64,000 nt of DNA from Bacteroidia bacterium (lineage in GTDB: Bacteria; Bacteroidota; Bacteroidia; M30B66), in the NCBI GenBank assembly GCA_965279035.1, contig OZ257142.1:480001-544000 (forward strand). Direction: 5' to 3'. Position numbers and translations under genes: made by a program. The notes below the pieces were generated by a model. It saw only the letters and a program-made list of their open reading frames with translations, was not told the DNA's origin and searched no databases. Positions 16,748 through 46,482 of this stretch are shown in pieces (positions within the stretch are counted from its first letter, which is position 1; each line of letters begins with the position of its first letter).

Positions 16748-17110
16748 TTATTCCCATTTGAATGCGTCTTTCTTCCACAGATAAAGAAATCCAAGTAGGA
16801 AGAAAGCAACAAAAATTAGCATGCTGATAAAGCCATCCAACCCAGAATCGCGGAAGTTGGTTGCCCATGGATAGAAAAAGATTACTTCCACATCGAACAA
16901 AACGAAAAGAATAGCGGTGAGGAAATACTTAATGGAGAAAGGTAAACGTGCGTTTCCTTTGGATTCAATTCCGCACTCAAAACTTTCGAGTTTGCGATCT
17001 CCTTTACGTTTTGGTCCAATTAAGTGGGTAATAACGAGCACCATTAGTACAAAGCCCGCAGCAAAAACCAATTGTATCAGTAGCGGGATGTATTCGCTTG
17101 TTCCGTTCAT
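16748..17110 (-). CDS. nuoA: NADH-quinone oxidoreductase subunit A
   Basis: FECG and FVLFDVEVIFFYPWA motifs; 3 TM segments. Likely start is ATG 17110. Confidence 0.95.
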   Translation of the reverse strand: MNGTSEYIPLLIQLVFAAGFVLMVLVITHLIGPKRKGDRKLESFECGIESKGNARLPFSIKYFLTAILFVLFDVEVIFFYPWATNFRDSGLDGFISMLIFVAFFLLGFLYLWKKDAFKWE

Positions 17111-17184
17111 GAGCGTTAGTTTTGGCGAATGATGTAACACAGTTTTCGTGAATGTGTTCAGCGATTCCACCCGAATTTTGCGCC

Positions 17185-17192
17185 CAAATGTA
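17185..17192 (-). promoter_or_regulatory. Bacteroidota housekeeping -7 promoter element (TACATTTG) for the nuo operon
   Basis: Exact TAnnTTTG match on the minus strand about 75 nt upstream of nuoA. Confidence 0.65.
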
Positions 17193-17387
17193 CAAACATT
17201 TGTATTTCAAGAAAGCAGAAGTTTTTTATGAAATACATTGTTCTTTTAACAAAAGATTTAAACCCTGTATTTAATTTATTTCGGTGAATTTATAAATGAA
17301 CAGAGCACATTCAGAGGGATAAATGATTATCAAGACTCAGTAATTTAAATTAGATTTACTTCAGTTTCTAAAGAATATATGCTCCAA

Positions 17388-17414
17388 TGCAACGCATTAT
17401 TCAGTTTATGCGTC
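17388..17414 (+). promoter_or_regulatory. Candidate ECF sigma promoter TGCAAC-N17-CGTC upstream of the lipoprotein/ECF/anti-sigma operon
   Basis: TGCAAC at 17388-17393 and CGTC at 17411-17414 with a 17-nt spacer. The AAC/CGT cores are typical of ECF promoters, and the same motif recurs at 20049-20075. Confidence 0.65.
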
Positions 17415-17437
17415 TAATAAACAGGAACATAGAACCC

Positions 17438-18136
17438 ATGAAAAATCCTTACTTCAAACTTACATCGTCGGTCTTTTTAGCCATAATAGTAACATTATTA
17501 GGTTCTTGTGGCAAAAAATTCAAAGAAACATCTCCTTTGAACGTGACAGTTAAAATGGTCAACACAGATGTTTCAGAACATTTTTCATTTGAATCAGGGG
17601 AAATGTATTTGGGCACATTTGGAATGAATGGAGATCGCAAGCAAGGTGATGATGTGCTTTTTTCAAATGTTCTTTCCGATGGAACAACAGCTGATTTAAA
17701 AACAGGTGTAATTTCTCCGGTATTAACGTATGATTTACCACAAGGAACCTACACGACACTTTCTATTAATTTGGGAAGCAAACCGAAACAGTCACTGGGT
17801 GCAATTCGGCTTATAGGGAAATACATTCAAATAGAACAAGGAGGTGAGCAGGAAACTCATCAGATTGTTTTTCAATATTCTCCAGCAACTATGTATTCAT
17901 TAAATGCTATTACTTCGGGAGAGATTAATATTTTATCAGACAAATCAACCACAGTCAAAATAGAGATGGACGCCCATTACCTTTTCTCGGCAGTTCCTGA
18001 AAATCTGTGGCATACAGCTCAGCATATTGAATTGGATGGGAAAGAGACAATCTTTATCACCGATATAAATAACACAAGCATTTACAATCTTCTTATAACG
18101 CGTTTAAATGCAGCATTCTCGGTACACATTGAGTAA
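17438..18136 (+). CDS. Hypothetical lipoprotein, first gene of the ECF operon
   Basis: MKNPYFK...IIVTLLGS-C lipoprotein signal and a beta-rich mature part. Its stop lies 6 nt before the sigma start. Confidence 0.7.
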   Translation: MKNPYFKLTSSVFLAIIVTLLGSCGKKFKETSPLNVTVKMVNTDVSEHFSFESGEMYLGTFGMNGDRKQGDDVLFSNVLSDGTTADLKTGVISPVLTYDLPQGTYTTLSINLGSKPKQSLGAIRLIGKYIQIEQGGEQETHQIVFQYSPATMYSLNAITSGEINILSDKSTTVKIEMDAHYLFSAVPENLWHTAQHIELDGKETIFITDINNTSIYNLLITRLNAAFSVHIE

Positions 18137-18142
18137 TTGAAC

Positions 18143-18730
18143 ATGGCAGATGAAGCCACAGAGAAGCAATTAATCGAAGGATGTGTTCGTGAAGAACGCC
18201 GCTTTCAGGAATTGCTATATCAACGCTTCTCGCCAAAAATGTATTCCGTATGTAAAGGTTATGCTGTAAGGAATAATGAAGCAGCCGACTTATTACAAGA
18301 AGCCTTCATAAAGATTTTTAAAAACATCGGGGAGTTCCGGTTTGATTGTCCTCTTGAAGGTTGGATTCGACGAGTTGTGGTCAATACAGCGATAGATCAT
18401 TACCGAAAAGATGTTCGACAATTGCCTTCGGTTTCGCTTGATGATACTGCCGAAACAGCTGATGAAACGGAGTTTTCACATCCAACGGATCATCAATATT
18501 TTTTAAAAATGATTTCGGCTTTACCTGATGGATATCGATTGGTATTTAATCTTTATGTGATTGAAGGATTGAATCATCGGGAAATAGCAGAAAAAATAGG
18601 CATTAGCGAAGGCACATCAAAGTCGCAACTAGCTCGCGCTAAAAAATACCTGCAGCAACGATTAAAGCAGGAAATGAATTTACAAGTTAATCCTCAAAGC
18701 AATGAAGGAAGATATTTTCAATTGGTATAA
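18143..18730 (+). CDS. ECF RNA polymerase sigma-70 factor
   Basis: Region 2 (DLLQEAFIKIF, LEGWIRRVVVNTAID) and region 4 (LPDGYRLVFNLYVIEGLNHREIAEKIGISEGTSKSQLARAK). Confidence 0.95.
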   Translation: MADEATEKQLIEGCVREERRFQELLYQRFSPKMYSVCKGYAVRNNEAADLLQEAFIKIFKNIGEFRFDCPLEGWIRRVVVNTAIDHYRKDVRQLPSVSLDDTAETADETEFSHPTDHQYFLKMISALPDGYRLVFNLYVIEGLNHREIAEKIGISEGTSKSQLARAKKYLQQRLKQEMNLQVNPQSNEGRYFQLV

Positions 18731-20030
18731 AAAGGGATTTGAATCCCTCCCACAAGAAACTCCTCCACCCATGATATGGGAAAACGTGGAGGCAGCTCTC
18801 GATGGAAAACCGAATCGGAGAAAACCATTGGGAATCTGGTGGTGGACAAGTGGTCTGTTTATTTTGCTCGTTTCAGCCGGCATCCTAATTTCGAAAATGA
18901 ATAGTGGTTCCAATGAAAACACAGCGAATGTGAACAGCTCGAATGTTGGGAAATCTGCTAAAAATGAATCAGTTGCATTATACAATAAATCGTTAATCAC
19001 TACTGATTTGAATTCTAATTCCTCAATTACGGAAATAGAAAAGGCAGAAGTGAAAAGCAATACAGCAGAATCAAACGAAATTTCTGTTCAAGAAACAGTT
19101 CAGCCTAAATCAGGTTTGTATGTAATACCAGTGGTTATAGAGGAAGAAATCGCACAGATTAATTCTACTATTGAAATGCCCAAAGAAGCGAATAAATTGA
19201 ATAATGTAAATCAATCTGAAATTAAACAACCACTATTAGTTGAAATTCCTGAAGAAGAATTGGTGGAAGCTCCATCTCAATCAAATGATATCTTGAGTTC
19301 TTTGAGTGCGATAGAAATTACGAATCAACCAATTCCTTTAGTTCTAAATTCAAAAGAAGAAAATTTTCCAGCGTTTGTAATGCCTTCTGAAGGTTCAAAC
19401 GGACCACGTTGGAGTTTTGGTATTGCTTCGGAAGTGAATAATAATTGGCTGTTTAATCATGATTTTGTGGATGCGTTGAGGAAAGAGTCAAATAACTCAA
19501 TCATGCCTCATTTTAGTTCTACTTGGTCATTTTCTGCTGCAAAGGAATTCCTTCCAGGACAAAGCATTCGAACCGAATTCATTGTTTCTAAAAGAGAAGG
19601 ACAGCACTATTTAATATATTCAGAGGGAATGCTTCAACAAAAAACCATTCATTTAAATTATTCTGGAGCTACAATTCTGTATGATCATGCTAAACTCAAT
19701 AGCCGCATATTCCTCGGAATTCCTTTGAGAACTCATTGGTTGGTTGGAACTTCCGTTTGTTATTTATCCGAAAGCACTTTTGCCTTTGGAGGACAAGTTA
19801 CTAATCCACTTGGGTACCGTAAAATGAATGTTTCTTTGGTTGGTGGATTTGAAAAGGAAATGCTGTTTTCTAAACATCTTTCATTTGGAACCGGCCTTCG
19901 TTTATATGGTGGGTTAACTAATATTTTCAAGGGATATGAGAATATTCCATCTTGGTTTAACCGAACTCATACTGGAAATATTGCTTGGACATTCTCACTT
20001 CGATATACGATTGGTATCCCAAAGCATTAA
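18702..20030 (+). CDS. Putative anti-sigma factor with a single TM helix, low-complexity linker and C-terminal outer-membrane beta-barrel-like domain
   Basis: Overlaps the sigma gene end. N-terminal PPPMIWENVEAAL helix, then TM WWWTSGLFILLVSAGILI, a ~170-aa N/S/E-rich linker, and amphipathic beta strands ending in WTFSLRYTI. Confidence 0.7.
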   Translation: MKEDIFNWYKKGFESLPQETPPPMIWENVEAALDGKPNRRKPLGIWWWTSGLFILLVSAGILISKMNSGSNENTANVNSSNVGKSAKNESVALYNKSLITTDLNSNSSITEIEKAEVKSNTAESNEISVQETVQPKSGLYVIPVVIEEEIAQINSTIEMPKEANKLNNVNQSEIKQPLLVEIPEEELVEAPSQSNDILSSLSAIEITNQPIPLVLNSKEENFPAFVMPSEGSNGPRWSFGIASEVNNNWLFNHDFVDALRKESNNSIMPHFSSTWSFSAAKEFLPGQSIRTEFIVSKREGQHYLIYSEGMLQQKTIHLNYSGATILYDHAKLNSRIFLGIPLRTHWLVGTSVCYLSESTFAFGGQVTNPLGYRKMNVSLVGGFEKEMLFSKHLSFGTGLRLYGGLTNIFKGYENIPSWFNRTHTGNIAWTFSLRYTIGIPKH

Positions 20031-20048
20031 AGAAAAATTAAAAGTTCA

Positions 20049-20075
20049 TGCAACCCTCATTTTAGTTTGATCGTC
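20049..20075 (+). promoter_or_regulatory. Second candidate ECF promoter TGCAAC-N17-CGTC
   Basis: TGCAAC at 20049-20054 and CGTC at 20072-20075. Same hexamer, spacer length and -10 core as 17388-17414; both copies are preceded by A and contain AGTTT in the spacer. Confidence 0.6.
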
Positions 20076-20081
20076 CTTTTT

Positions 20082-20179
20082 AAGAGAGGACTTTGGTCAG
20101 GAATCTCTTTTCAAACCATCTCATTTTTTCAACCAAAAACCGGCTGCCTTTGCAACAAAAGACAGTCGGTTTTATTTTT
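20082..20179 (+). ncRNA. Candidate ECF-dependent small RNA (~98 nt)
   Basis: Lies between an ECF-type promoter and an intrinsic terminator. It has a 5' hairpin (AAGAGA 20082-87 / TCTCTT 20104-09) and a C/U-rich single-stranded middle, with no credible ORF. Confidence 0.5.
20136..20179 (+). terminator. Intrinsic terminator hairpin
   Basis: AAAACCGGCTGCCTTT pairs with AAAGACAGTCGGTTTT (one GU pair, one mismatch), running into TTTTATTTTT. Confidence 0.7.
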
Positions 20180-20213
20180 ACCAATAGCCCAAGAACGTTC
20201 GTAGTTTTGTGTG

Positions 20214-22076
20214 ATGATAACACACAGAATTTTGCTACGATTGGTTTTAGGATTCGTACTTCTCTTTCCTCAGGTTTCTAGTTCCCAAGCTAATTGGTGG
20301 AAAGATGCTGTATTCTATGAAGTGTTCGTTCGAAGTTTTTACGATAGCAACGGAGATGGTAAAGGCGACTTAAATGGTATCATTGAAAAGATGGACTATT
20401 TAAATGATGGAAACCCATCTACCAAAACAGATCTTGGAGTAAATGCCCTTTGGCTTATGCCAATCATGCCTTCGCCCAGCTATCATGGATATGATGTAAC
20501 TGATTATTACGGTGTTGAAAGTGATTACGGAACAAAGCAAGCCTTTAAAAACCTTATTGATAGTGCTCATGCCCATGGTATTAAGGTGATTATTGATTTG
20601 GTTTTGAACCATTCTTCTAGTTCGCATCCTTGGTTTCAATCAGCTTTGGGTTCTGTAAATAGTCCCTATCGTGATTATTATATTTGGGAAGATAGCAATC
20701 CGGGATTTCTGGGTCCTTGGGGACAAACGGTATGGTATCAACGAAATGGAAAGTGGAATTACGCTTTGTTCTGGAATGAAATGCCCGATTTGAATTACCG
20801 GAATGAAGGCGTTCAAGATGAAATGAAATCCGTTGCTCGTTATTGGGTTGATAGTATGCGGGTTGATGGATTTAGGCTCGATGCTATACAATATTTGGTT
20901 GAAGACGGAACTCAACTTTTGGGAACACCAGAAACCTTTGCCTATATTGAAGATTGGAGCGCAAACTTTAAGTCTGTTAATCCCGAAATTATGACCGTTG
21001 GAGAAGTTTGGTCGCCTACGGCAGTTGGTATTCAGTATGTGCAAAATGGCAGATTGGATATGTGTTTTGAATTTGATCTTGCTGAATCCATCATTAGTAG
21101 CATCGTTGCTGATAGTCCAGATGATTTTCAAAATATGATGAATACGGTGAACAGCTCATTTCCGGAAAGTCGCTACGGTACGTTTTTAACCAATCACGAT
21201 ATCAATCGTTCGTTCGATCAAATAGGCCAGAATACAGCTAAAGCAAAACTGGCTGCTGCTGTTTATCTTACATTACCAGGAACTCCGTTTATATATTATG
21301 GTGAAGAAATCGGGATGAGTGGAACAGGTAATGACGAAACCAAACGCAGGCCAATGCAATGGAGTAATCAAGGAAATGCTGGGTTTACGTGGGGCACACC
21401 TTGGGAATCTTTAGCTAGTAATTATACTGTAGTAAATGCTGCAGCTCAACAACAAGATTCGAGTTCACTTTGGCAAACGTATCGGACATTTATTGAGCTT
21501 CGGAAAGGTCAAACCGCTTTGCGAAAAGGAGCTTATAAAGTAATGGCTGATGTAAATCCTGAAGTTATTGGATATGCTCGTTATACAAATGATGAGTTGC
21601 TATTGGTTCTTCATAATTTCACGAGCACTAGTGTTTCTAATCTAGCATTTGCATTAGGAACAACCAATTTAGCAGAAGGGAATTATACCGTATTGGATCT
21701 TTTAAACCCCGATGATTTAATAGCCCCAATTAGTTTAGGTGCAACTGGGAATGTGGTTAATTATATGCCTGGAGTTGAAATACCTGCGTATGGAACACGC
21801 GTATTATCAGTTCAAATTTCCCCAGGATTCTCAACACTTGAAGTTTCGAACAATGTTCAAGTATTTCCAAACCCAGCTCAAGATAAAATAAACTTCAATT
21901 TTCCTTCTTCAGTAAAGTTAAAGTCTAGTCGGATATTTAATGAGAATGGGCAAGAATTAATGAAATCGAATACAGAGAACACACTCGATATTTCTAAACT
22001 TTCTTCTGGGATTTATCAAATAGAACTCAGGTTTGAGTCAGGAAAAAGAGTTCTTCGTTCTTTTATTAAGGAATGA
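20214..22076 (+). CDS. GH13 alpha-amylase with T9SS type A C-terminal domain
   Basis: Signal peptide; FYDSNGDGKGD, YHGYDVTDY, DLVLNH and catalytic GFRLDA / VGEVW / FLTNHD motifs; CTD VFPNPAQD...LSSGIY...FIKE. ATG 20214 lies 4 nt after TAGTTTTG. Confidence 0.93.
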   Translation: MITHRILLRLVLGFVLLFPQVSSSQANWWKDAVFYEVFVRSFYDSNGDGKGDLNGIIEKMDYLNDGNPSTKTDLGVNALWLMPIMPSPSYHGYDVTDYYGVESDYGTKQAFKNLIDSAHAHGIKVIIDLVLNHSSSSHPWFQSALGSVNSPYRDYYIWEDSNPGFLGPWGQTVWYQRNGKWNYALFWNEMPDLNYRNEGVQDEMKSVARYWVDSMRVDGFRLDAIQYLVEDGTQLLGTPETFAYIEDWSANFKSVNPEIMTVGEVWSPTAVGIQYVQNGRLDMCFEFDLAESIISSIVADSPDDFQNMMNTVNSSFPESRYGTFLTNHDINRSFDQIGQNTAKAKLAAAVYLTLPGTPFIYYGEEIGMSGTGNDETKRRPMQWSNQGNAGFTWGTPWESLASNYTVVNAAAQQQDSSSLWQTYRTFIELRKGQTALRKGAYKVMADVNPEVIGYARYTNDELLLVLHNFTSTSVSNLAFALGTTNLAEGNYTVLDLLNPDDLIAPISLGATGNVVNYMPGVEIPAYGTRVLSVQISPGFSTLEVSNNVQVFPNPAQDKINFNFPSSVKLKSSRIFNENGQELMKSNTENTLDISKLSSGIYQIELRFESGKRVLRSFIKE

Positions 22077-22183: not shown

Positions 22184-23062
22184 TTACTTATCTATTGTAA
22201 TCACTAAGTATTTAGAAGATCTCCAAAAAGTTTCAGAATTGGTGATTGTTAAACTTTTCACCATTTTCTTACCATCCATTTCCAATTTGTATGAACTCGT
22301 TGGGTGATTGGTAACAAGTTTTGCATTCTTTCCTCCAACATTAATGGACTTAACTTTAGAGATGTCCACTTGAGTAAAATAATCTTGATTGAAATCTGAT
22401 TTCAACAATTTCTTTTTACCCAAACCTAGGAAACCACCTTCTTTGTTTAACACTTTATTGTCGCGCAACTCTTTGTATGTCCCTACAGTGTAATAAGCTG
22501 TATTGATTTTAGTTGTTTGTTGCTCGATCGTTTGAGTTTTGCTAGCACTTTCTGTTTGAAGTCCAGTAATAGCTGTGTTCATCTCATTAATTTGGATGTT
22601 CATAGCTGCCAATTGCTCTTTCAAGGTTCCAATTTCCTTGTCTTTCTCAGCTAATTGCTCTGTCATTCGAGTAATCATTTTCTCAAACTCAGCAATTTTG
22701 AGGTTCGACTTTTTCAAACGCGATTGAAGGGAAGCAATTTTACTTTTGTTCTCTTCCATCAATTCATTGATAAAATTGATGTCTTCGTTGATTCTGTCTT
22801 TTGCAGATCCTTGAAGTTCAGCACCTCCTTCGGTTGCAGAAGATTTAATCGCACCTTGCTTTTGTTTCACTTGAGAAAGATTGTCTTCAATCTCATTGAG
22901 TGATTCCATAAAGGAATTGATCGTAGAATCTTTGGTAGCAGCTTCTTTTGCTAAGGCAGCTTTTTCGGCTTTTAAAGCTTCCATTTCGGGATTTGGCTCA
23001 TCACCTCCCTTGCAACCAGCAAGAGCGAGCACTACAGCGGCTGCATACAGAAAACGTTTCAT
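22184..23062 (-). CDS. Conserved Bacteroidota coiled-coil lipoprotein (Cbp1-like family)
   Basis: LALAG-C lipobox, long heptad coiled coil, and a C-terminal domain TAYYTVGTYKEL...FNQDYFTQVDI...LVTNHPTSSY...FWRSSKYLVI. Confidence 0.7.
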   Translation of the reverse strand: MKRFLYAAAVVLALAGCKGGDEPNPEMEALKAEKAALAKEAATKDSTINSFMESLNEIEDNLSQVKQKQGAIKSSATEGGAELQGSAKDRINEDINFINELMEENKSKIASLQSRLKKSNLKIAEFEKMITRMTEQLAEKDKEIGTLKEQLAAMNIQINEMNTAITGLQTESASKTQTIEQQTTKINTAYYTVGTYKELRDNKVLNKEGGFLGLGKKKLLKSDFNQDYFTQVDISKVKSINVGGKNAKLVTNHPTSSYKLEMDGKKMVKSLTITNSETFWRSSKYLVITIDK

Positions 23063-44193: not shown

Positions 44194-46482
44194 GTGTTGA
44201 ATTTTCGATTATTTCTCTGCTTCATCTTGTTTGCGCCCATTTTTTTAAAAGCGCAAAAAGTGGGTGTTGTTCTTAGCGGAGGCGGCTCTAGTGGACTAGC
44301 TCACGTTGGGGTTCTAAAGGCTCTCGAAGAAGCACATATTCCAATCGATTATATTGCTGGAACTTCCATGGGCGCGCTTGTTGGCGGTCTCTATGCCATG
44401 GGTTATTCTCCTAATCAAATTGAAGAATTAGTTAAGAGTGATGAATTTAAAGGTTGGGTATTCGGAAAGCCAGTTGAACGTTATGTGTATTTCTTTCGCG
44501 AACGCGAACCTGATGCTAGTTGGGTTGGGATAAAATTCCGAATTGATTCAGTAATTCAAACACGCTTTCCAACGAACATTATTTCTCCATCCAATATGGA
44601 TTTTGCTTTTTTGGAGAGAACCTCTGCAATAAGTGCTGCTGCTAAATACAATTTCGATAGCTTGTTTGTTCCCTTTCGATGCGTCGCTGCGGATATTTAT
44701 AACAAAGCAGAAGTTGTTTTCAAAGATGGAGATGTTGGCCAGGCTATGCGAGCTTCTTCTACCTATCCATTTTTCTATAAACCAATTGTTGTAGATGACA
44801 AATTGCTTTTCGATGGTGGTTTGTATAATAATTTCCCAGCCGATGTGATGTATCGTGATTTTTTGCCAGACGTCATCATTGGAAGCACCGTTGCATCTGA
44901 AATAAAACCGCCTCAAGAAGAAGACATTCTATCTCAAATTAAAAATATGTTGATGGATAGAACCAGTTATGGTGAAGTATGTGAGACAGATCATATGATC
45001 ATTATTAAACCTTTGATTCCCAAAGTGGCAATCCTCGACTTTGATCAAACAAATGCCATTGTTGAAGGAGGATATCAGAGTACAATTGCTCGCCTTCCCC
45101 AATTAATGACTATGATTAGTCGACGTCAAGATTCACTTGTATTGGTTGAACGTAGGAAGGTTTTTAAGGAAAAACAAAAGCCTGTAGTGATTGATGATAT
45201 TCATATTGAAGGCTTAAGTAAAAATCAGGTAAATTATATCAAACGAGCATTTGGTGAAAAAGCTTTTCCTGTTACAATAGAAGATATTCGCCCTTATTTT
45301 TATCGAGTTGCCTATGATGATCGGATTAAAAAAATCCACCCAACAGCGATACTCGACACCAACGATGGTCATTTTCTGTTGAATCTAAAAATGAAGGTTG
45401 ATAAAGATCTTCAGGCCCAATTTGGTGGATTGATTTCCTCTAGGCCAATCAATACTGGATTTGTAGCACTTCATCTAAAACGGATAAATCGAATTGGGTT
45501 AACACTTGATGCCAATTCCTATTTTGGGAAATTCTATGGTTCACTTCAAGTAAAAGCGACACTCGATTATCCTTTCAAATTGCCTTTTCAAGTAGAAACC
45601 GATTTTACCTTAAACAACTTCGATTATTTCTATAGTTCAAGTACCTTTTTTGAAGATGTAAAACCTTCTTATTTAATTCAATATGACCGTTCAATTACAG
45701 GTGCAATTGTATTTCCTTGGAGGAATAAATCAAGAATGAAAGTTGGATTAACTGGAGCAAGAATGTTTGATGATTATTATCAAACACAAAATTTTACCAC
45801 AGCCGATACAGCCGACCGAACCAATTTCAACCATGGTTCTTTTTGGATGAATTTTGAACGCAACACCTTGAATCGGAAGATGTACGCCAATACGGGTTCA
45901 CAGTTTTTTGTGAAATTCAGGTATTTAGCTGGACAGGAATACAATAATCCAGGAAGTACTTCTCAATTAACAGATGAATACCGTCGCATTCACGATTTCT
46001 GGAGATTGAGAACAGTTTACGATGTTTACTTCAATAAGCGAGGACGAGTGCATATTGGGTTTTATGGAGAAGCTGTTATTTCAAATCAACCATTATTCAA
46101 CAACTTTACAGCGAGCTTACTACAATCGGCCGCTTTTTCACCAATTCCTGAGAGTAGAACCTTGTTTCAATCTCAATTTCGTTCGCATAATTATGCAGCA
46201 ACAGGACTAAAAGCAATCCTAAGTTTCACATCGCGTTTGGATCTTCGAATGGAAGGATATATTTACCAACCACATCGAGTGATTCTTCAAAATACCGATT
46301 TAACGGCCTATTATGGTGAGCCATTTAGCAAACGTTATTTTATGGCTTCTGCAGTATTGGTTTATCATTCACCCATTGCTCCAATTGCAATTAGCGCTAA
46401 TTTCTACGATCAAAGTGCGAATCCAATTTCAATCATTTTCACCACCGGTTTCTTAATATTCAACCGAAGAGCTTTTGATTAA
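44194..46482 (+). CDS. Patatin-like phospholipase with POTRA/beta-barrel C-terminus (PlpD-like)
   Basis: VLSGGGSSG, GTSMG (catalytic Ser) and DGG motifs, then a long beta-strand-rich C-terminal region. Confidence 0.85.
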   Translation: MLNFRLFLCFILFAPIFLKAQKVGVVLSGGGSSGLAHVGVLKALEEAHIPIDYIAGTSMGALVGGLYAMGYSPNQIEELVKSDEFKGWVFGKPVERYVYFFREREPDASWVGIKFRIDSVIQTRFPTNIISPSNMDFAFLERTSAISAAAKYNFDSLFVPFRCVAADIYNKAEVVFKDGDVGQAMRASSTYPFFYKPIVVDDKLLFDGGLYNNFPADVMYRDFLPDVIIGSTVASEIKPPQEEDILSQIKNMLMDRTSYGEVCETDHMIIIKPLIPKVAILDFDQTNAIVEGGYQSTIARLPQLMTMISRRQDSLVLVERRKVFKEKQKPVVIDDIHIEGLSKNQVNYIKRAFGEKAFPVTIEDIRPYFYRVAYDDRIKKIHPTAILDTNDGHFLLNLKMKVDKDLQAQFGGLISSRPINTGFVALHLKRINRIGLTLDANSYFGKFYGSLQVKATLDYPFKLPFQVETDFTLNNFDYFYSSSTFFEDVKPSYLIQYDRSITGAIVFPWRNKSRMKVGLTGARMFDDYYQTQNFTTADTADRTNFNHGSFWMNFERNTLNRKMYANTGSQFFVKFRYLAGQEYNNPGSTSQLTDEYRRIHDFWRLRTVYDVYFNKRGRVHIGFYGEAVISNQPLFNNFTASLLQSAAFSPIPESRTLFQSQFRSHNYAATGLKAILSFTSRLDLRMEGYIYQPHRVILQNTDLTAYYGEPFSKRYFMASAVLVYHSPIAPIAISANFYDQSANPISIIFTTGFLIFNRRAFD

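Follow-up and report, generated by a model that had tools for sequence, protein, structure and literature searches.

Directly behind an operon for a lipoprotein-like protein, an ECF sigma factor and an anti-sigma factor in the window (the whole 64-kb stretch of DNA that was analysed), we found a conserved, non-coding element that follows a second copy of the promoter motif of the operon and is independent of the downstream gene. Our preferred reading, which we consider fairly probable from the comparison of related sequences, is that a ~95-nt non-coding RNA is transcribed from this second motif copy (P2) by the adjacent ECF sigma factor, and that the RNA likely acts in trans by base-pairing. 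Since the RNA carries a copy of the operon's own promoter (P1), it is probably an RNA regulator built into the system of the sigma factor. The element would then represent a new RNA family, composed of ECF-dependent small RNAs (sRNAs) attached to a Dma-like system, with expression and function both being predictions.

The operon and the predicted architecture of its anti-sigma factor

The locus comprises a lipoprotein / ECF sigma / anti-sigma operon with a copy of TGCAAC-N17-CGTC on either side. The first gene of the operon (17438..18136, plus strand) encodes a lipoprotein-like protein of 232 aa, in which a signal peptide is followed by a Cys. This protein matched 0 Pfam and 0 NCBIfam families, and its homologues were found at the equivalent position in four related loci (L001, L003, L004 and L007). 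The second gene (18143..18730, plus strand) encodes an ECF sigma factor of 195 aa, which was matched by Sigma70_r2 and Sigma70_r4_2 of Pfam and by sigma70-ECF of NCBIfam; only such generic ECF models matched, and the family assignment stays at that level. The sigma factors of the relatives are 59-80% identical to that of the window. The third gene (18702..20030, plus strand; stop codon TAA at 20028-20030) encodes an anti-sigma factor of 442 aa. The anti-sigma gene begins within the sigma gene, with an overlap of 29 nt (18702-18730) that recurs in L003 and L004 and suggests translational coupling.

The anti-sigma factor found no Pfam match at threshold, the score for OMP_b-brl_2 being 13.5 bits against a cut-off of 27. 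Among the members of the anti-sigma family, OMP_b-brl_2 matched weakly in 2 of 20 (best E = 0.0028). In the AF2 model (mean pLDDT 55.8, with mostly 70-93 in the C-terminal part), N-terminal helices are followed by a single membrane helix at residues 44-68, a linker of ~160 aa that is disordered at about residues 68-229 (pLDDT < 50), and eight long strands at residues 236-438, which form a beta-barrel of the outer-membrane type. Foldseek matched this barrel to OprG, Ail, OmpA, OmpW and the OprF barrel with a probability of 1.0 and TM scores (target) of 0.52-0.67. The protein is thus predicted from the model to be a dual membrane-spanning (Dma-like) anti-sigma factor, which would span both membranes.

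Two copies of one promoter motif

The ECF-type promoter motif in front of the operon, P1 (TGCAACG-N16-CGTC(TAA); 17388..17414, plus strand), lies 24 nt before the ATG at 17438 and is presumed to be autoregulated. P2 (TGCAACC-N16-CGTC; 20049..20075, plus strand) begins 18 nt after the anti-sigma stop, with TGCAAC at 20049-20054, a spacer of 17 nt and CGTC at 20072-20075, and both copies are preceded by an A. The first-pass annotation, made from the letters of the window, had described this pair of motifs, including the distance to the stop and the preceding A, and we found every part of the description in place. Judged from the sequence, P2 matches the recognition motif of the putatively autoregulated promoter P1.

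The 64-kb window contains three exact copies of TGCAAC-N17-CGTC, where 0.06 would be expected from shuffled sequences, and at least three copies appeared in 0 of 100 shuffles. The third copy (44869-44895, minus strand) was set aside as a probable chance match, because it lies antisense inside a gene for a patatin-like phospholipase (44194-46482), has a GC-rich spacer and has no terminator behind it. In five related genomes (12.3 Mb), GCAACS-N16-CGTC gave 25 matches and its reversed control 55; six of the 25 belong to the sigma locus, as P1 or P2. From this rarity, the regulon of the sigma factor looks very small. Other intergenic sites with GCAAC[C/G]-N16-CGTC were noticed at L020 (G004:C32), upstream of a TAT-signal lipoprotein; at L024 (G001:C8), upstream of a large secreted protein; and at L022 (G002:C126), upstream of a lipoprotein with a 227-nt AT-rich stretch in between. 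These three sites are possible extra members of the regulon.

The anti-sigma family comprises 23 proteins including that of the window, to which the full-length members are 40-46% identical; about 20 more relatives of the anti-sigma factor are present in metagenomes. Alignments of the anti-sigma factor led us to seven related loci, four among 16 candidate stretches in species genomes and three among 173 in metagenome contigs. The anti-sigma identity in these loci is 43.9-51.6% over the best aligned segment, and the locus with 51.6% (L002) is a partial match. Three loci (L004, L005 and L006) are identical over the element, and the comparison covered eight distinct sequences in two clades. In all seven related loci, [G/A]CAAC-N17-CGTC, the RNA and a terminator stand directly behind the anti-sigma stop. 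The core proposal of the first-pass annotation, an RNA gene of its own that carries the ECF promoter a second time, is supported by this arrangement, along with the same motif upstream of the operon; absence of the motif behind orthologous anti-sigma genes, which would have spoken against the proposal, was seen in none of the seven.

At the position of P2, [G/A]CAACC-N16-CGTC is present in eight of eight distinct related sequences, and the spacer sequence differs between the clades. Invariant boxes together with spacers that diverged between the two clades are the pattern expected of a promoter. The P1 motif (TGCAACG-N16-CGTCTAA) was found in each of the four loci that reach far enough upstream (L003, L004, L005 and L007), ~1.3 kb upstream of the anti-sigma gene, and also at a contig end in G001 (L033). 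We also considered a housekeeping promoter for the RNA and rejected it, as no TAnnTTTG box occurs within 70 nt upstream of the RNA in any of the eight sequences.

Structure of the predicted RNA and its terminator

The predicted RNA of ~95 nt spans about 20083-20176 and consists of a 5' hairpin, an unpaired stretch and a terminator. This layout agrees with that given in the first-pass annotation, in which a C/U-rich unpaired stretch lay between a 5' hairpin and a strong stem with a tail. The conserved part of the RNA begins 8-9 nt after CGTC (the -10 box). A unit of 98 nt folds at -28.0 kcal/mol (z = -4.2), and none of 200 shuffled sequences folded as well. The Rfam 15 covariance models gave no match in 20049-20179 even at E <= 10; seven weak matches in 17000-21000 all lie elsewhere and are below the gathering score.

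The 5' hairpin, SL1 (20083..20108, plus strand), is built on AAGAGA...GAC-TTTG-GTC...TCTCTT at 20082-20109, and its outer stem pairs 20083-20087 with 20104-20108. The single-sequence minimum free energy fold does not contain this hairpin, but the outer stem, as previously drawn, is backed by the comparative alignment. In the alignment of eight sequences, 39 of 40 cells of the outer stem are paired, and in two of its five pairs both partners are replaced, once in the window (U-A to A-U) and once in clade B (A-U to U-G). The score of the outer stem was reached by two of 500 shuffles, and slid controls showed 25-58% pairing. As the eight distinct sequences fall into two clades, the covariation rests on about two events, and the compensatory changes lend the outer stem modest support. 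The inner part of SL1 varies between lineages.

The unpaired C/U-rich stretch (20110..20134, plus strand), which is unpaired in the alignment fold, is a candidate seed. Its conserved core in the window is CAAACCATCTC at 20112-20122, and the candidate core of the seed is CAAACCAUCUC. The consensus of the core is CAAA[C/U]CA[U/C]C[U/A]C, in which the columns C30, A31, A32, A33, C35, A36 and C38 are invariant among the eight sequences.

The intrinsic terminator (20136..20179, plus strand) has a stem of 15 pairs with UUUUAUUUUU; the strong stem covers 20136-20173, and TTTTATTTTT follows at 20170-20179. A strong terminator is present in every relative, with a stem of different sequence in clade B. 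Over 20135-20179, an A-run precedes the stem and a U-run follows it, and the copy in clade B lies between convergent genes; from these two observations, the terminator may work in both directions.

As the interval from the anti-sigma stop (20030) to 20136 contains no other terminator, the hairpin must terminate the operon mRNA as well, and the RNA is expected to share its 3' end with that mRNA. Transcripts of the operon must therefore cross the element before they end at the hairpin (20136-20173), as they would if the element were a cis-acting 3' UTR, composed of the terminator and a stabilising or processing element, with an inactive P2 and a small RNA made by processing only. We regard this explanation as unlikely. 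The 17-nt spacing of the boxes is exact in eight of eight sequences despite the divergence of the spacer, and boxes that match P1 would be needless in a mere 3' UTR. Furthermore, two genomes have lost the operon, and with it the upstream mRNA, but still have P2 and the RNA (see below). The first description of the element had allowed for a hairpin that acts as the terminator of the operon mRNA and nothing else. The terminating role stands, but the conserved promoter boxes and the conserved 5' part are left unexplained by that role.

Conservation and distribution of the RNA

The RNA transcribed from P2 in our preferred reading contains conserved blocks, namely UGAG..., GUCAGG and CUCAUC[U/A]CAAA[C/U]CAUC[U/A]C, which are followed by the strong terminator. 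Within the clade of the window, nucleotide identity is 82-92% for the RNA, 73-77% for the sigma gene, 66% for the lipoprotein gene and 60-63% for the anti-sigma gene. By these alignments, the RNA is the best conserved stretch of the locus within that clade. When the clades are compared with each other, identity over the full RNA falls to 63-65%, about the level of the coding genes, and the blocks named above are still kept.

A covariance model of the RNA found one strong copy per genome in six of the 24 genomes of the order containing G001-G004; the family tier of these genomes consists of the same 24. Six matches of ~33 bits in the family were dismissed as plain terminators. In a sample of 149 other genomes from the class, the model found nothing real, its single match of 43 bits being a look-alike terminator that follows a gene whose product has a secretion tail. 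In the genomes covered by these searches, the distribution of the RNA family appears to be narrow, being confined to six of the 24 genomes of one small order and the window; the group of Bacteroidota concerned is small and uncultured.

Relationship to the downstream gene and coding potential

In the window, the gene 3' of the RNA element encodes an alpha-amylase with a type IX secretion tail (ATG at 20214) on the same strand as the operon. The amylase gene has a housekeeping -7 box of its own, TAGTTTTG at 20202-20209, an exact TAnnTTTG that is kept in four of four loci of the same clade, as the first-pass annotation had proposed for the window. The box ends 4 nt before the ATG (20202-20216 in the window, 5509-5523 in L004), and such proximity suggests that the amylase mRNA is leaderless or nearly so. 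Clade B lacks the amylase, and the next gene there encodes a coiled-coil protein in convergent orientation. The RNA is thus not a leader, as the next gene is convergent in clade B and the amylase has its own conserved -7 box. This agrees with the earlier claim that the promoter and terminator pair does not serve the amylase. The same coiled-coil gene is found in the window beyond the amylase (22184-23062, minus strand). As the coiled-coil gene adjoins the RNA directly in clade B and is separated from it by the amylase in the window, the amylase appears to have been inserted in clade A.

An ordinary terminator accompanied by a chance promoter-like motif, or else a leader or attenuator of the amylase, would account for a hairpin that is a good terminator and for an amylase encoded on the same strand in the window. 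Neither form of this explanation is compatible with the conservation of the motif and the 5' part of the RNA in eight of eight sequences, given a chance expectation of 0.06 motifs per window. Besides, clade B has a convergent gene in place of the amylase, and the -7 box of the amylase lies after the terminator. The explanation is already contradicted by these comparative data, and we find it scarcely tenable.

A small protein is also very improbable. One frame, TTG-initiated, is open across the core in clade A, where it reads L-I-S-N-H-L, as well as in clade B, where it reads L-I-T-N-H-H, and one of three clade differences in it is synonymous (AAC to AAT). Nevertheless, the frame has no ATG, the positions of TTG differ between the clades, and L001 has no start codon of any kind. 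Between the window and L004, an indel after the core shifts the frame, and the C-terminal parts are unrelated. The frames also enter or cross the terminator hairpin. A short frame on the minus strand could be proposed instead, but the frames on this strand, of 8-18 aa, vary in length and sequence. With frames broken by indels between close relatives and no start codon in L001, the aligned sequences mark the element as non-coding.

Loss of the operon in two genomes

In two genomes, G005 and G007, the operon was lost by a natural deletion. Downstream of a PhoH-like gene, these loci (L014 and L015, respectively) keep a remnant of the final portion of the anti-sigma gene, with P2 and the RNA behind it. 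The remnant was seen in the DNA alignment; tblastn of L014 and L015 found no lipoprotein, sigma or anti-sigma factor. No orthologue of the sigma factor was found elsewhere in the two genomes, both of which are incomplete; the best match, with 30% identity, is a paralogue that G003 has as well.

Between two loci that both have the operon (L003 and L007), the RNA is 95.6% identical (87/91) and the next gene 90.0%. The corresponding values between L003 and the operon-less loci are 89.1% for the RNA and 93.3% for the next gene in the case of L015, and 89.2% and 93.6% in the case of L014. These values, which rest on small counts, fit an RNA that came under relaxed constraint after the loss of the sigma factor, with the copies in G005 and G007 being relics. 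The orphan RNA could equally have been kept in these genomes for some other reason. Thus, either the RNA can persist without a strict need for this particular sigma factor, or the two copies are relics.

Search for targets and proposed mode of action

If the RNA acts by pairing to mRNAs, the unpaired stretch is the obvious place to look for complementarity. The first-pass annotation had noted that the stretch is complementary to AAAAAAUGAGAUG and had connected this sequence with start-codon regions. The complementarity does exist in the window, but the relatives do not share its AUUUUUU part, which is peculiar to the window. The proposed pairing at start codons found no support, as that part is not conserved and searches with the core stayed at chance level. 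For instance, searches of six related genomes for 18-mer complements of the unpaired stretch with up to three mismatches returned the RNA gene itself and chance-level matches only. Exact 11-mer complements in the same number of related genomes lay inside or antisense to coding regions, with 0 at start codons. A duplex scan of the operon mRNA in four loci found no conserved site. In a duplex scan of the 65 start regions of the window, the best value was -16.8 kcal/mol, and 76 of 100 shuffled seeds were at least as good. All of these are weak tests, being made with exact or near-exact matches, on incomplete genomes and on 64 kb of the window's own genome.

The results of the target searches bear on a different role for an ECF-dependent RNA, namely one without pairing to mRNAs. 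The RNA could bind or sponge a protein through the repeated CAUC[U/A]C, or could feed back on the sigma and anti-sigma factors. Most relatives have CAUCUC (clade A) or CAUCAC (clade B) twice in the unpaired stretch, both copies change together between the clades, and no complementary mRNA target was found by the 18-mer, 11-mer and start-region searches. On the other hand, the first repeat of the window is degenerate (CUUUUC), so that the double motif is not universal, and the searches for targets have the limited power described above. We do not think a role of this kind likely.

For an RNA that pairs in trans, the following course of events can be put forward. The sigma factor encoded just upstream would read both P2 and the near-identical P1. 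Upon release of the sigma factor by the envelope-spanning anti-sigma factor, the operon and the RNA would rise together. The RNA would arise as a primary transcript of P2 and also as the 3'-terminal part of the operon mRNA; two forms are expected because both transcripts end at one terminator. It would most likely pair in trans via CAAA[C/U]CA[U/C]C[U/A]C and, presumably by repression of its targets, form the non-coding arm of the response.

The genomes of Bacteroidota carry dozens of ECF sigma factors each, and we know of no Hfq in this phylum. It is attractive to speculate that Dma-type modules of an anti-sigma factor and an ECF sigma factor carry a hard-wired sRNA output, by which one envelope signal would set off the sigma module together with an RNA that regulates envelope or lipoprotein genes in trans. 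To our knowledge, Bacteroidota are devoid of Hfq, and an ECF-dependent sRNA arm would be a first for this phylum. The RNA may even outlive the operon, as promoter and RNA were kept in two genomes after the operon was deleted. We offer this wider proposal tentatively, as a possibility to which we lean less than to the sRNA itself. The tight physical coupling of the RNA to the operon gives a simple rule for finding more RNAs of the kind, namely to check whether the autoregulated promoter recurs right after the stop codon of the anti-sigma gene.

Comparison with known systems

Small RNAs dependent on sigmaE are well documented in Enterobacteria, Vibrio and Pseudomonas, as are FoxI and FoxJ in Fusobacterium; before FoxI, the evidence for such sRNAs was limited to Proteobacteria, according to PMC9546586. 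The RNA described here resembles them in having an ECF-type promoter with the autoregulated motif of the sigma factor, in the layout of hairpin, unpaired stretch and terminator, and in its presumed role as a non-coding arm. It differs from them in that it has no sequence or Rfam relationship to them, occurs in Bacteroidota, is encoded by a gene fused to the 3' end of the sigma operon with a common terminator, and is known from sequence. In the literature, including the available portions of PMC9723704, PMC7366714 and PMC10861873, we found no ECF-dependent sRNA in Bacteroidota. If the RNA is confirmed, the logic of a coding arm plus a non-coding arm would extend to a third phylum.

The genomic arrangement recalls sRNAs with promoters of their own at the end of an upstream gene. 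DapZ is a 3'-UTR-located sRNA with its own promoter. MicL is transcribed from a promoter inside cutC (PMC4102768). As in these cases, a separate promoter at or behind the end of the upstream gene is combined, by sequence, with a terminator that would be common to the upstream mRNA. Unlike in these cases, the host mRNA is that of the sigma factor's own operon, both promoters have the same motif, and P2 lies after the stop and not in the coding sequence.

Non-coding RNAs linked to ECF sigma genes in Bacteroidota are also represented by the guide RNAs of dCas12f-sigmaE systems, which need an adjacent dCas12f gene and use no promoter motifs (PMC13472631). We considered such a guide RNA and rejected it, as the operon encodes a lipoprotein, a sigma factor and an anti-sigma factor, with no dCas12f gene. 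The window locus also differs from these systems in its canonical two-box motif.

Lastly, the protein components of the locus invite comparison with the Dma/Das systems, namely Dma1 with the ECF21 sigma factor Das1 in B. thetaiotaomicron and Reo/EcfO in B. fragilis. According to PMC10927553, Dma1 is annotated with OMP_b-brl_2 of Pfam, and three genes are strongly up-regulated in the dma1 mutant, so that the published regulon is tiny. The terms 'sRNA' and 'small RNA' have 0 matches in the main texts of the Dma1 and Dma2 papers. In the supplements to PMC7366714, as far as these were available, the locus tags of the B. thetaiotaomicron Dma1 locus occur only in the tables of TSSs and terminators. 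The lipoprotein of the window differs from the Dma/Das systems in having no match to NigD of Pfam, and its anti-sigma factor in matching OMP_b-brl_2 below threshold. Nevertheless, the predicted model of the anti-sigma factor has the architecture of Dma proteins, i.e., a cytoplasmic N-terminus, one membrane helix, a long disordered linker and an 8-stranded C-terminal barrel. If the RNA is confirmed, a non-coding arm would be tied to this dual membrane-spanning type of anti-sigma factor. The locus further shares with the Dma/Das systems an ECF sigma factor as the partner, a lipoprotein gene at the locus and a regulon that appears to be very small.
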